The notes under the pieces were generated by a model, which was not told the DNA's origin, ran no database searches, and saw only the letters and a list, made by a program, of their open reading frames with translations. Below, in pieces: positions 3,279 to 29,808 of a stretch of 64,000 bases of DNA. The translations under genes and the position numbers were made by a program. The DNA comes from a virus (taxonomy: Duplodnaviria > Caudoviricetes): positions 1 through 64,000 of the IMG/VR virus record IMGVR_UViG_3300020576_005257. The stretch is one strand, 5' to 3'. Each line of letters begins with the position of its first letter. Positions within the stretch are counted from its first letter, which is position 1.

Positions 3279-4015
3279 ACTAGTAATCCTTCAACCTTTT
3301 CTTCGTTTTCTTCTAAAAATCCAAGGGCTAAGTTACACGATCTGCATAAAAGACCTCTTATACACTTCCCACAAGAAAATCTTTTATTGCAACATTTATG
3401 GTCATGGTCAATACTGTGGATTGGTAAACTACATCCTTCAATTGCACATACTCCATTCTGCTTGTTGAAGAGATCGAAGTAAATGTCATATCTCATATTA
3501 TGTTTTGCTAATTGAGTACAAATTTTACAATAAGGTTTTCTTCCAGATGGCCTGCTTGATACTTTACCAAAATCTTCCAATCTTCTTGTTCTATTACACC
3601 AAGGACAAAACTTCTCTTCTAAGGTAAATTTTCTACTAGTTAAAGAAATCTTTTTTCCTTTACAGTTACTACACCCTCTTGACTTACCGGATTTCAGATC
3701 TCCCCCATTAATGGTCTTTACAATACCACAAGAACATTTACATTCCCACATTGTTCCTTTATGTCTCTTTGCTGATCTACCCAAAACGGTCCAATCCCCA
3801 AAGTTTAGACCCTCCAAATCCTTATATTCACCTTGGAGTGCTCTACCTGAAAAATGACTAATATCTATCCCCAACTCCTCTATTCTTTTTTTCACTTTTC
3901 TGATATTATAGCTATCATAGGATAAGCCACATTGATTCAAAATGTGCTTTTTGCTATCAGCTCTTTCAACTAAGTTTCTGAAAGCTGACTCTTCTATTAA
4001 ATCTATCTTTCCCAT
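3254..4015 (-). CDS. Endonuclease VII-like (His-Me) homing endonuclease
   Basis: IDHDHKCC...CGKCIRGLLCRSCNLALG; WECKCSCG...SRGC module; N-terminal IDISHFSG module. Confidence 0.88.
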   Translation of the reverse strand: MGKIDLIEESAFRNLVERADSKKHILNQCGLSYDSYNIRKVKKRIEELGIDISHFSGRALQGEYKDLEGLNFGDWTVLGRSAKRHKGTMWECKCSCGIVKTINGGDLKSGKSRGCSNCKGKKISLTSRKFTLEEKFCPWCNRTRRLEDFGKVSSRPSGRKPYCKICTQLAKHNMRYDIYFDLFNKQNGVCAIEGCSLPIHSIDHDHKCCNKRFSCGKCIRGLLCRSCNLALGFLEENEEKVEGLLVYIKESKL

Positions 4016-8958: not shown

Positions 8959-9730
8959 TGTTTAATATAGGAGATTTTGTCATTGTAAAAACTCAACTAA
9001 CTAGAGTTAATACTTTAGGAAAGCCTAGACTTTATGCTAGGAAAGGTACTAGAGGTGTTATTACTGATATCTTTTTATCTCCTGCTAATGAAAGGTATAA
9101 TAACTATCCATATAAAGTTGGTTATGCTAAAGTAAAAGTAGCAAATACTATAACTGGAAGGATAGAGATATTAACTTTTAGACTTAGTTCTCTAGTTCTA
9201 AATGAAGATGTTACTGATATAGATCGTTTAAACGAAACTAGACCTGAAGGTCAGATGCATCTTTAAGGTAATAAAATGATTTCAAGAACTCCAGATATTA
9301 GAATAGAAGCTGAACATACCCTTCAACCTATTTATCTAGTTGACTTCCCCCAAACTTCCAGTCTAAGTGGAACATCTTATAGTATTTATACTGATAAGTT
9401 GTTTTCTTTGAAGTATGGAAAACATGGAGGCATAGATTGCTTGCCATTAGTTATTCGCTATAAAGAGAGAGCTTTTATGGAAGTATTCATAGCTGGAGAA
9501 ACTTTATCAGAGTTTCGACAACTATGTCCTGAAGGCTTCTCCAGAGTTAACCTCCAGAAAATTGAAACTGAAATTGTTCATTTTTTACTTCAAATTTCTT
9601 TTCTTATCTTTCAAAAATATCCTCATCTTTTTCCTCTCTTTTTAGATTCAGCTTTCTCTTTAGGTTTTTTTGAGGGCGGATCTAGTAAAATCTATGAAAT
9701 CAAAAAAACTTTAGGTTTAGTTTAATATAC

Positions 9731-9759
9731 GCTCGGGTGGCGGAATTGGTAGACGTAGC
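9731..9759 (+). pseudogene. 5' fragment of interrupted tRNA-Leu
   Basis: GCTCGGG-TG-GCGG-AATTGGTAG-ACGT-A-GC; acceptor pairs with CCCGAGT at 10335-10341. Confidence 0.85.
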
Positions 9760-9773
9760 ACAACACTATATGT

Positions 9774-10205
9774 GTGGCTACAAGAAAATACAATTCTTAT
9801 ACTATAGATCAGTTAAAAGAAGCTGTTTCTACTTCCTTTTCAATTGCTCAAGTTTTGAGGCTCTTAGATTTAGCTCCAGTAGGTGGTAACTATTCTACTA
9901 TGAGAGTTAAGATTGCTAAACATTCAATTGATACTTCTCATTTTACTGGAATGTTATGGAATAAAAATAAATCTTTAAAAGATTATAGTGAATATAAAAG
10001 AAATGGTAATCTTAAAAATAAGCTTATCAAACAGGAAGGACATATTTGTATGAATTGTCAAAATGCTAAGTGGCAATCCTTACCTATTCCACTTGAATTA
10101 CACCATATTAATGGGAATTCTACTGATAATTCTAGAGAGAATTTACAGTTACTATGTCCTAATTGTCATTTTCAAACTCCTAACTTTAGAGGAAGAAATA
10201 TTTAG
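9774..10205 (+). CDS. HNH homing endonuclease
   Basis: CMNC...LELHHINGNSTDNSRENLQLLCPNCH; N-terminal IDTSHFTG module. Confidence 0.9.
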   Translation: MATRKYNSYTIDQLKEAVSTSFSIAQVLRLLDLAPVGGNYSTMRVKIAKHSIDTSHFTGMLWNKNKSLKDYSEYKRNGNLKNKLIKQEGHICMNCQNAKWQSLPIPLELHHINGNSTDNSRENLQLLCPNCHFQTPNFRGRNI

Positions 10206-10209
10206 TTTT

Positions 10210-10295
10210 GGCCCGATGGTGGAACTGGTTTACACAGCAGGTTTAAGCCCTGCTTTCCGAAAGGATTGAGAGTTCGAGTCTCTCTCGGGTCACCA
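10210..10295 (+). tRNA. tRNA-Leu(UAA), nested inside the split tRNA-Leu
   Basis: GGCCCGA/TCGGGTC, GCAGG-TT-TAA-GC-CCTGC, long variable arm TCC-GAAA-GGA, A73-CCA. Confidence 0.93.
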
Positions 10296-10345
10296 AATCC
10301 GTTGACTGGGAAGTCGTATGGGTTCAAGTCCCTTCCCGAGTACCA
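10296..10345 (+). pseudogene. 3' fragment of interrupted tRNA-Leu
   Basis: AA-TCCGT-(GAC..GTC variable arm)-ATGGG-TTCAAGT-CCCTT-CCCGAGT-A-CCA. Confidence 0.85.
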
Positions 10346-10351
10346 ACTTTT

Positions 10352-10428
10352 GACCCGGTAGCTCAATTGGCAGAGCAACACCCTTTTAAGGTGGAGGTTT
10401 CCGGGATCGTTGCCTGGTCGGTTCACCA
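10352..10428 (+). tRNA. tRNA-Lys(UUU) with non-canonical T loop
   Basis: CACC-CT-TTT-AA-GGTG anticodon arm, A73-CCA; T loop ATCGTTG; C3:U70 mismatch. Confidence 0.82.
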
Positions 10429-10690
10429 ATTTATTAACATGAGACCAAAGAGAAAGAAGAAAAAGGATAACAGAAAGATTGGTAAAGACACTAAATTCTT
10501 TCGTAAACCTAAAATATCTATTTGGAAAAGTATTTATCCTTACTCAGTTTTAGGTTCTCTTAAAGGAGATCAAAATGCTGTATTAAATTATCTTATTGCA
10601 AGATGGTCTAAAACTAGATACAAAAGAAAACAGCAACGTATCTTAGATCTTGAAATACGTAAAATGCTTGAAGATGATTAAGGTAGTCTT

Positions 10691-10891
10691 ATGGTTCAAA
10701 TCTGTCCTGATTGGGATTCTAGAACATGTTCTTTTATTTTTAGAATCAAGAATCTAAAAGTACACTTTATCAGATCTATTCGTAAAGATAATATTGCTAT
10801 TAGTAAAGAAACTGCCTCTGTTAAGCTTCTTTACTATAATACTACTTTAGAAGAATTTATGCCTCAATATATGGACTTTACCTATATATAG
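10691..10891 (+). CDS. YxxxLEEF-family microprotein
   Basis: C-terminal YNTTLEEF. Confidence 0.6.
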   Translation: MVQICPDWDSRTCSFIFRIKNLKVHFIRSIRKDNIAISKETASVKLLYYNTTLEEFMPQYMDFTYI

Positions 10892-26348: not shown

Positions 26349-26380
26349 GTGGATATAGCTCAATGGCTTAGAGCGACTGT
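26349..26380 (+). pseudogene. 5' half of interrupted tRNA (His-like)
   Basis: GTGGATA-TA-GCTC-AATGGCTTA-GAGC-G-ACTGT; pairs with 27104..27138. Confidence 0.8.
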
Positions 26381-26390
26381 AACCTTTATG

Positions 26391-26433
26391 CATTTGGATG
26401 TAACAAAATCTTATCTTTTGTTACATCCAAATG
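26391..26433. repeat. 18-bp inverted repeat over the HNH stop codon
   Basis: CATTTGGATGTAACAAAA-TCTTATC-TTTTGTTACATCCAAATG. Confidence 0.8.
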
Positions 26434-27079
26434 TGGGTGTTTGAGAATGACAATTAGGACATAATAATCTTACATTGTCTATAGAGTTATTATTTGGATT
26501 ACCGTCAATGTGATCTAGTTGTAATACTAATTTCTTACCTTCCCATTCCTCAGAAAGACCACAAACCTTGCAAACATTAAATCCTAAATGTTTTAGTGCC
26601 CGTTTCAGCGTAAAATTAGTTTTAATTTCATTATCTTCTAATCTTTCTATTCTTTTTGTTTTCATATGTTCTTTGTAGCAATTTCGAGAACAGTAAACTC
26701 CTCTTTGTTTTTGTATATTATTATTACAAAACTTACATATTCTTTCAGTTTTTACTTGTTTAACCTTATTTCTGTTTTGGTATTTAGCATTACAAGATTG
26801 ACAGCAGAAATGGTTTTTTGATTTCTTAATGAGAGACGTTCTTTTGAAAAAAGTAACAGAACAATTTGTACACTTAATTTGTTCTTGGCTTTGCCTATGC
26901 AAAGCGAAACAAGCTACTGAACAAAATTTATGGGCTCTATTTGTTAATTTACCTGATAACACTGTTTGTACTTCATGTTTCTTCTTGTAAAAACTACATT
27001 TACAATGGTAACATTCTAAAGGAACTATTGCTCTAGATTTCAACATACTAAATTCTTCATTCGTAATTAACATCTTCAT
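26411..27079 (-). CDS. HNH homing endonuclease with Zn-finger repeats
   Basis: CKVC...LQLDHIDGNPNNNSIDNVRLLCPNCHSQT; FCSxxC repeats. Confidence 0.9.
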   Translation of the reverse strand: MKMLITNEEFSMLKSRAIVPLECYHCKCSFYKKKHEVQTVLSGKLTNRAHKFCSVACFALHRQSQEQIKCTNCSVTFFKRTSLIKKSKNHFCCQSCNAKYQNRNKVKQVKTERICKFCNNNIQKQRGVYCSRNCYKEHMKTKRIERLEDNEIKTNFTLKRALKHLGFNVCKVCGLSEEWEGKKLVLQLDHIDGNPNNNSIDNVRLLCPNCHSQTPTFGCNKR

Positions 27080-27103
27080 TGTTATAACTTAGTGTTGTCT
27101 CTA

Positions 27104-27138
27104 ATAGTAGATGGCGAGTTCAATTCTCCCTATTCACC
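27104..27138 (+). pseudogene. 3' half of interrupted tRNA (His-like, C73)
   Basis: ATAGT-AGATG-GCGAG-TTCAATT-CTCCC-TATTCAC-C; anticodon loop absent. Confidence 0.78.
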
Positions 27139-29533: not shown

Positions 29534-29808
29534 GCCCCAGTAGCTTAGTGGATAAAGCAACAGCCTTCTGCTAATAATATAACAGTGGGCCTTATAAGGG
29601 AAACCCTATAAGTGTAAGTTGTCAAATTCGGTGAACGCTAAAGAGAAATCCATGCCAATACCGAGCCAAGCCCTTTATGGGAAGGTGTAGAGACTAGACG
29701 GCAACTACCTAATCTCCTTTGGAGTAAGGTAAAGGTATAGTCCAACGAGTCAGGAAACTGACATAAAGTTGAAGCTGTTTATCGGAGGTTCGAGTCCTCT
29801 CTGGGGCG
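29534..29808 (+). tRNA. tRNA-Arg(UCU), exons 29534-29569 and 29772-29808, split by group I intron
   Basis: spliced: GCCCCAG-TA-GCTT-AGTGGATA-AAGC-A-ACAGC-CT-TCT-AA-GCTGT-TTATC-GGAGG-TTCGAGT-CCTCT-CTGGGGC-G. Confidence 0.9.
29570..29771 (+). ncRNA. group I intron, subgroup IC3 (Azoarcus-like), 202 nt, no ORF
   Basis: P1 UCU/GGG with U.G at splice site, P2 GAAA loop, TGTCAAATTCGG, CCGAGCCAAGC, GAAGGTGTAGAGACTAGACGGCA, ATAGTCCA, P9 GTCAG-GAAA-CTGAC, P9.0 AAC/GTT then terminal G. Confidence 0.93.

Follow-up and report, generated by a model that had tools for sequence, protein, structure and literature searches.

In the giant phage recorded in IMG/VR as IMGVR_UViG_3300020576_005257 (Duplodnaviria; Caudoviricetes; 234,927 bp), a tRNA-Leu gene is split by a cassette composed of an HNH endonuclease gene and a second, complete tRNA-Leu(UAA). 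The window analyzed here, to which coordinates refer unless stated otherwise, is the first 64 kb of that record. Sequence comparison shows the HNH—one of a family dedicated to tRNA(UAA) genes—and the spare tRNA-Leu(UAA) that goes with it to lie only a few bases from the site at which introns with related HNH genes interrupt tRNA(UAA) genes elsewhere. Most probably, the locus represents a homing-endonuclease cassette that occupies the tRNA-Leu intron site and replaces its target rather than being spliced from it. Its cleavage specificity, its mobility as a unit, the immunity of the spare tRNA and the expression of the cassette we infer by analogy with known enzymes. A preliminary description, made from the letters of the stretch alone, had already recognized the split gene and its contents; the comparison with related loci adds that the cassette lies at, or within a few bases of, the canonical group I intron site of tRNA-Leu, and that the endonucleases of this same intron are the family from which its HNH comes.

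Anatomy of the broken tRNA-Leu gene and its insert

The two outer fragments (Table 1) read, on the + strand, GCTCGGG-TG-GCGG-AATTGGTAG-ACGT-A (9731–9756) and AATCCGT-TGACTGGGAAGTCG-T-ATGGG-TTCAAGT-CCCTT-CCCGAGT-A-CCA (10296–10345). The second comprises A37-A38, the 3′ strand of the anticodon stem (TCCGT), a long class II variable arm, the T arm, the 3′ strand of the acceptor stem, A73 and CCA, and gains position 36 if A10295 is counted as common to it and the nested CCA. Between the outer ends, the acceptor stem forms seven of seven pairs, including one G.U, and the same GCTCGGG...CCCGAGT-A pairing is shared by intact genes for Leu(UAA) (L106, L170; L### labels denote loci) and Leu(CAA) (L090) and by the intron-bearing Leu(UAA) gene of L038. 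The first 25 nt (9731–9755) match exactly the starts of tRNA-Leu genes in at least 120 metagenome contigs, and 117 of the 121 contigs examined with this 25-mer hold complete tRNA-Leu genes, with six anticodons. An exact scan of viral contigs for the 5′ half gave one match. As pointers to phage relatives these exact matches were discarded, being ordinary tRNA-Leu genes that confirm the Leu identity of the half and identify no relatives. Using nhmmer, the remnant on the 9731 side was detected as an orphan 5′ half (E=5.5e-4). The outer halves are closest to intron-bearing Leu(UAA) genes, which make up the entire top 12 of 141 (best, 82%).

Table 1. Features of the interrupted tRNA-Leu locus, in window coordinates.
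Feature	Position	Strand	Description and basis
Outer tRNA-Leu 5′ remnant	9731..9756	+	tRNA positions 1–26: acceptor 5′ strand, U8, Leu D arm, A26
Hairpin GUAGC...GCUAC with inner CA/UG stem	9754..9781	+	Spans the left junction and encloses the HNH GTG start
HNH endonuclease gene	9774..10205	+	143 codons, GTG start; open reading frame list, Pfam, PHROG, AlphaFold2
Nested class II tRNA-Leu(UAA)	10210..10295	+	86 nt, encoded CCA; ARAGORN, Rfam RF00005
Outer tRNA-Leu 3′ remnant	10296..10345	+	tRNA positions 37–76 and CCA; sequence, split-tRNA scan, alignment to L106 and L038 exons
tRNA-Lys(UUU)	10352..10428	+	6 nt past the outer CCA; ARAGORN, Rfam 40.7 bits

Alignment to L106, an intact Leu(UAA) with the same acceptor stem, shows the outer halves to cover positions 1–26 and 36/37–76. 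The outer gene is thus short of positions 27 to 35/36, i.e. 9–10 nt, or 7–8 nt if G27 and C28 (9757–9758), which are possibly original to it, were retained. What has gone comprises the anticodon and the 5′ strand of its stem; pairing with TCCGT would take ACGGA, and the sequence at that place is GCACA. Despite this loss the halves are readily read as a single gene, as ARAGORN called a tRNA with exactly the ends 9731 and 10345 after many different deletions of the middle, chosen arbitrarily (49 of 468; in a second scan, 236 junction pairs). Taken together, these comparisons confirm at the sequence level that the outer fragments stem from one class II tRNA-Leu(UAA) gene, and what is left of that gene in this phage reads as a dead remnant. 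The occurrence of this acceptor pairing in L106, L170, L090 and L038 speaks indirectly against an origin of the two fragments in different genes. The preliminary description had assigned the fragments to a single Leu-type gene from the D arm, the long variable arm, A73 and A37-A38, an assignment that the 25-mer matches bear out, and its figure of about 8 nt lost over the anticodon was a fair estimate.

An assembly artefact or a chance resemblance is an extremely improbable explanation of this arrangement. The record is a metagenome contig, and tRNA-like repeats can mislead assemblers; however, the same nesting was found in independent contigs from other samples (L050, L051, L066), and the halves match real tRNA-Leu exactly. 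A loose genome-wide scan for split tRNAs gave one to three matches per shuffled 235-kb genome, and such chance matches have no reason to bracket an HNH and a tRNA; in the real genome it gave five, each of them at an HNH or intron locus.

The insert (9757–10295) measures 539 bp, of which only ~17 nt and 4 nt (~21 nt together) are non-coding. Its sole open reading frame (ORF) is the HNH gene, which lies outside any intron and has its own start. The protein scores 22.7 bits against Pfam PF01844 (cut-off 21.4), 22.3 bits and hence just below the cut-off against PF13392, and E=5.4e-35 against PHROG 10822. All 18 residues that are invariant among 42 family homologues are kept, among them C92, C95, H111, N119, N123, C128, C131 and H132. 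The predicted layout is an N-terminal three-helix domain followed by a C-terminal zinc-ribbon nuclease domain of the form CxxC...HH...N...N...CxxCH, so that, by sequence, the protein possesses the HNH catalytic motif together with putative zinc-binding cysteine pairs. An AlphaFold2 model (predicted local distance difference test score, 86.6) found HNH domains as its best Foldseek matches, though weak ones (McrA, E=0.04), and the structure search returned no informative solved relative for the protein, including its N-terminal domain. Folding of the RNA from 9731 to 9800 gave a minimum free energy of −17.1 kcal/mol (z = −2.19 against shuffles, which is weak evidence), and the hairpin over the GTG start may restrain HNH translation. 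A helix closing both ends of the cassette was not seen, its right end being the nested tRNA's own acceptor strand.

The nested tRNA begins four bases past the HNH gene, and its CCA (10293–10295) stands flush against the 3′ remnant. It scores 50.4 bits against RF00005 (gathering score 29) and has all four stems, the discriminator A and then CCA, with a long variable arm, A73, and UAA in a 7-nt loop (anticodon arm GCAGG-TTTAAGC-CCTGC). To the joined outer halves it is 64% identical; its closest matches are intronless tRNAs adjacent to HNH genes (10 of the top 12; best, 76%). ARAGORN detected no other tRNA-Leu in the 235-kb genome, which has a GC content of 35.9% and uses TTA as its commonest Leu codon (37.7%). 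Judging from these features, the nested tRNA most likely does the job of the broken outer gene and reads UUA.

No intron was recovered at the locus. An Rfam cmscan of 9300–10800 at E<=10 gave no intron match, nor any RNA family scoring meaningfully besides the two tRNAs. An nhmmer profile of the cognate tRNA-Leu introns (described below) matched neither the Leu locus of the window nor any other nested or intron-free locus; its only match in the whole genome was an Rfam-confirmed intron in tRNA-Arg (29574–29764, E=4e-25), which served as a positive control. With positions 27–35/36 gone, the outer exons fail to join into a complete tRNA. Splicing of the outer gene is therefore excluded, since there is no ribozyme and the anticodon, like the 5′ strand of its stem, is missing. 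By its lack of a ribozyme and its own start, the HNH gene classes as a putative free-standing (intronless) homing endonuclease gene. Neither a tyrosine nor a serine integrase is encoded in the insert, whose only ORF is the 143-aa HNH, and because nested tRNA and outer remnant are only 64% identical they do not form an attachment (att)-type repeat. The remaining structural points of the preliminary description held up as well: an insert of ~535 bp with an HNH gene, an intact but divergent nested Leu(UAA) with its CCA abutting the remnant, and a deletion that precludes simple splicing. Its view of the nested tRNA as the functional copy is a likely one.

It is very improbable that the outer tRNA is still made by a less conventional route, be it by a ribozyme that escaped recognition, by splicing that depends on proteins, or by linkage of the two halves once RNase P/Z has released the nested tRNA. 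The halves do keep CCA and all stems but the anticodon stem, and the nested tRNA would supply natural RNase P and 3′-end cuts right at the 3′ half. Yet the DNA contains neither the anticodon nor the 5′ strand of its stem, so that the joined halves would be a tRNA without an anticodon arm. The insert, for its part, is taken up almost entirely by the 432 nt of HNH coding sequence, and no ribozyme was found in it.

An HNH family tied to tRNA(UAA) and its group I introns

At least 435 homologues of the HNH were found at ~50% identity. A profile scan yielded 581 viral and 589 bacterial loci (~1,170), of which the best 80 of each were examined together with three fetched by identity, giving a viral set of 84 that includes the window and a bacterial set of 80. 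In 157 of these 164 loci (81 of 84 viral, 76 of 80 bacterial), the HNH touches or interrupts a tRNA(UAA) gene. Among the viral loci it lies inside a tRNA(UAA) intron in 25, beside an intron-bearing gene in 10, beside an intronless gene in 46 and beside other Leu isoacceptors in three; the corresponding bacterial numbers are 44 inside, six beside intron-bearing and 26 beside intronless genes, with four loci lacking a tRNA nearby. Across these unrelated genomes there is one fixed target site, as intron junctions fall at U34/A35 (the slash marking the junction) and most cassette junctions at or within a few bases of it: intron-bearing genes have the exon junctions ...GACTT / AAAATC..., and their introns end in a conserved ...TAGTGGTAAG.

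Rfam at its gathering threshold missed nearly all tRNA-Leu introns of the related loci, and a permissive run added only the ORF-less, 200-nt intron of L033, which reaches the threshold of the group I family RF00028 (61.8 bits). We therefore built the nhmmer profile from seven ORF-less introns, and this profile matches every locus with the HNH inside the tRNA. By sequence, then, the introns in these tRNA(UAA) genes are group I, and they occur at 35 of the 84 viral loci. They come in two architectures: in one, the ribozyme is split by the HNH gene in either orientation; in the other, the order is 5′ exon, HNH, whole ribozyme, 3′ exon (L028, L035, L037, L038, L041, L042, L062, L072, L084, L086). 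The window has the layout of the second, with a tRNA in the ribozyme's place. Its 3′ junction lies 1–2 nt from the canonical 3′ splice site, and its 5′ junction 6–8 nt upstream of the 5′ splice site.

This likeness bears on an in-place origin of the locus, in which an HNH-bearing group I intron had its ribozyme later swapped for a tRNA by recombination and its 5′ exon clipped, leaving a one-off scar that never travelled. Apart from the layout, in which the tRNA stands where such introns have their whole ribozyme, this origin is favored by a 3′ junction no more than 1–2 nt from the 3′ splice site, by the resemblance of the outer halves to intron-bearing alleles above all, and by the scatter of nested loci over the HNH tree. 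However, no ribozyme trace remains, and in a quick tree of weak support the window HNH groups with free-standing genes in which an HNH stands next to a tRNA (L003, L005, L013, L015). Moreover, the tight spacing of 0–10 nt between HNH stop and tRNA is common to the window and to free-standing HNH-tRNA modules at many loci, which suggests that HNH and tRNA came together. On balance, we regard an in-place origin as quite unlikely.

At ten viral loci, the HNH adjoins a tRNA-Leu(UAA) gene with an ORF-less intron of 185–280 nt. Identical HNH proteins occur beside an intronless tRNA-Leu(UAA) (L056) and beside the same gene with a 185-nt intron (L059). Two further pairs, L022/L023 and L020/L033, likewise show identical or near-identical HNHs in intron-minus and intron-plus settings (ORF-less group I introns of 185–200 nt). 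The three pairs are suited to studying collaborative homing.

Further observations concern the tRNAs beside these HNH genes. HNH-linked UAA tRNAs are often only 74–78 nt long with a short variable loop, a class I shape unlike normal tRNA-Leu; they were found intronless (L013, L014, L018, L020, L025, L027, L050, L051, L057, L063, L069, L077, L081) as well as with the same group I intron at U34/A35 (L033, L076, L078). In cultured Hymenobacter genomes the order is tRNA-Gly(GCC), HNH, intronless tRNA-Leu(UAA) (L216, L227, L230, L239, L242, L252, L254, L261), and these loci may serve as a tractable system for the target of the enzyme. L044 and L045 (1343–2014) hold an HNH between tRNA-Leu(UAG) and tRNA-Leu(CAA), the flanking tRNAs having mutually complementary acceptor strands.

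Recurrence of the nested arrangement and a possible route of spread

About ten of the 84 viral loci show the design of the window or a decayed trace of it. Both outer halves surround an HNH and a tRNA(UAA) in L066 (in the order seen in the window), in L050 and L051 (HNH antisense) and probably in L087, which is truncated at the end of its contig. L054, L063 and L089 keep the 5′ half alone, L014 and L048 the 3′ half alone. The 5′ junctions lie exactly at ...CTT/ in L051, L063 and L054, and the 3′ side resumes at /AAAA... in L050, L051, L048 and L014. In the window, L050 and L066, the 5′ half is shorter by a few further bases. Bacterial genomes seldom show remnants of this kind (L238, L267).

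The L066 contig also contains matches above Rfam thresholds to RAGATH-6, RAGATH-7 and the Hatchet ribozyme (261–986) a few hundred bases upstream of the nested locus, and a partial Hatchet match downstream of it (3349–3426).

Recurrence of the halves raises the question of whether they are kept by selection, either as a tRNA-like clamp that signals RNase P and 3′ processing to release the HNH-tRNA transcript, or as homology arms for homing. In the window they are nearly undamaged apart from the deletion, with an acceptor stem of 7/7 pairs, a D arm identical to that of live tRNA-Leu genes over 25 nt and an intact T loop; the lone T-stem mismatch is also found in the outer tRNA of L051 and hence is not decay. 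Both halves, moreover, persist in several unrelated loci. Other loci, however, keep one half only, and the ends of the deletion vary from locus to locus, which is the look of neutral scar decay; most HNH-tRNA pairs are without any remnant. Selection on the halves is an unlikely account of their persistence.

Under the replacement reading, which we prefer, the HNH enzyme would cut HNH-free tRNA-Leu(UAA) genes near U34/A35 in a co-infecting genome, by analogy with SegB (PMC2330249) and mobE (PMC2790892), the presumed consensus cut site being ...GGACTTAAAATCC.... For repair of the break, the cassette-bearing genome would serve as template, its outer tRNA halves and flanks providing homology, and HNH and spare tRNA would be copied into the target. 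Insertion would destroy the recognition site, as an intron would; without a ribozyme, the cassette would supply a replacement tRNA instead of restoring the gene by splicing. The spare tRNA itself may escape cutting through its anticodon arm, GG-TTTAAGC-CC as compared with GA-CTTAAAA-TC in the target, and it should be immune because this arm differs from the presumed target. In line with this, all intron-bearing genes with a correct ARAGORN placement of the intron contain the presumed target 11-mer (GACTTAAAATC), as does only one of ten nested or half-nested spare tRNAs. The 11-mer argument for immunity is suggestive only. As a general rule, immunity by a changed anticodon loop was rejected, since 34 of 45 HNH-adjacent intronless tRNAs keep CTTAAAA; it holds for the nested subset only.

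Several observations weigh against the replacement reading. Sixteen of the 46 intronless HNH-adjacent tRNAs keep the target 11-mer, so that either the recognition site is a different or longer one or immunity arises in some other way. Simple break repair from an HNH-tRNA donor would yield a chimeric rather than a nested tRNA, and the flush placement of the spare copy is left unexplained. In the quick HNH tree, contexts are interleaved (22 changes, with the L056 and L059 HNHs identical) and the three nested rows fall in three places; this lack of monophyly, although weakly supported, implies that the design may arise repeatedly as a repair scar instead of spreading as a unit. The HNH gene has a GTG start that is enclosed by a hairpin, and a Shine-Dalgarno sequence is not evident. 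Finally, protein-pattern scans of viral contigs (HNH, upstream ORF), exact DNA scans (3′ half, Leu-Lys junction), a homologue search with the upstream ORF and an exact look-up of the HNH protein gave nothing besides the window itself, so that no close relative of this phage, and hence no empty site or sister allele for this locus, was found. As to the first nested copy, two routes are possible: a pre-formed HNH-tRNA module may have been captured at a break, or the ribozyme of an intron-bearing gene may have been swapped for a tRNA.

A wider reading, which we put forward tentatively and hold at a little less than an even chance, is that HNH-plus-tRNA cassettes form a distinct, actively spreading "cut-and-replace" drive for RNA genes, which would home into U34/A35 and decay to a free-standing HNH beside tRNA-Leu, as in phages and Hymenobacter.

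Genomic setting, known systems and implications

Judging by the adjoining tRNA-Lys(UUU), the Leu gene that was broken belonged to a small cluster of tRNA genes. Just upstream of the broken gene lies an ORFan of 149 aa (9276–9725), for which no homologue was found among 5.8 billion proteins and no match in Pfam. Other tRNA genes of this phage are interrupted, too. At 651–1566 of the window, an interrupted tRNA gene holds a nested tRNA-Ile(UAU) and an antisense HNH; a second, at 26349–27138, contains an antisense HNH but lacks a spare tRNA. The third (29534–29808) is a tRNA-Arg(UCU) whose 202-nt group I intron, confirmed by Rfam, precedes an HNH, and far downstream, on the − strand of the genome (C1, 202655–203153), there is a 499-nt split tRNA.

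A BLAST match to PAK_P4-like phages over the nested tRNA and the remnant was rejected as an instance of the same cassette, since it proved to be a tRNA-Leu(UAG) and an orphan 3′ half with an unrelated HNH. In Pseudomonas phage PAK_P4 (L211, NC_022986.1), orphan tRNA 3′ halves lie around an unrelated HNH at 1215–1239, 1471–1495 and 1617–1641. They consist of T arm, acceptor strand and CCA with no matching 5′ half, and one of them, overlapping the end of the HNH gene, bears the annotation tRNA-Lys.

Free-standing homing endonucleases are known from phage tRNA clusters, e.g. the GIY-YIG enzyme SegB of T4/T6 and the F-Tfl HNH enzymes of T5 (PMC2330249, PMC13096335; F-Tfl named in PMC2330249). SegB recognizes tRNA-gene DNA and drives preferential inheritance of itself and of neighboring tRNA genes, termed "intronless homing" (PMC2330249); it recognizes the conserved T-psi-C motif and has no isotype preference (PMC13096335). 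Like segB, the nuclease gene of the window lies among phage tRNA genes without an intron. Unlike SegB, whose gene sits between genes, the window HNH is of another nuclease family and stands inside its target tRNA at the anticodon loop; its family is tied to one anticodon, and it brings a whole substitute for the gene it breaks.

The tRNA-Leu group I intron is the other obvious comparison, since it shares the target gene and, to within a few bases, the insertion point with the cassette, and since the HNH family resides inside such introns in both viral and bacterial loci; in contrast to it, the window has no ribozyme and its exons cannot rejoin. Descriptions of the classical tRNA-Leu intron have it without an ORF, and I-Ssp6803I, the enzyme of the tRNA-fMet intron, belongs to the PD-(D/E)XK nucleases rather than to the HNH enzymes. 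Mobile group I introns in the anticodon loops of bacterial tRNAs have been reviewed (PMC3984707).

In "collaborative" (trans) homing, a free-standing endonuclease lies beside an ORF-less intron that interrupts its target, as for T4 mobE/I-TevIII (PMC2790892) and cyanophage F-CphI at the psbA intron site (PMC6083498). The ten viral loci at which the HNH adjoins a tRNA-Leu(UAA) with an ORF-less intron resemble this arrangement, whereas the home genome of the window cassette would owe its protection to the destruction of the old gene and to the variant tRNA rather than to an intron. Mycobacteriophage attP/attB sites at tRNA-Leu provide a third parallel, as an integrase-borne element there restores the 3′ end of the tRNA with its own copy (PMC3706429). 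The cassette, too, has a tRNA gene as its place of insertion and would make up for the loss with a tRNA that it carries itself; it differs in having no integrase or att repeat in its 539 bp, in carrying a whole tRNA of 64% identity and in leaving the old gene non-functional. A full-text literature search, whose incomplete coverage makes this absence of evidence only, turned up no account of a tRNA gene that hosts a nuclease gene and a second tRNA as a nested cassette.

According to a 2014 review, all phage introns then known lay in protein-coding genes despite the many phage tRNA genes (PMC3984707); here, by comparison, group I introns were found in many phage tRNA genes. One HNH family tied to a single anticodon occurs in phages and bacteria in intron-borne, intron-adjacent, intron-free and nested states, and these four states provide a natural series for studying the gain, loss and replacement of mobile introns. 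On the practical side, such cassettes lead tRNA finders to overlook genes or to assign them the wrong type, and the turnover of phage tRNA sets may in part be due to them.

To our knowledge, homing endonuclease genes are thought to survive in essential genes only through removal with an intron or intein, and otherwise to reside between genes. The window and its sister loci point to another solution for an RNA gene, namely to break it and bring a substitute. If the "cut-and-replace" drive proves true, homing elements would shape the tRNA alleles of phages and would have, besides introns and inteins, a third way to live inside an essential gene.

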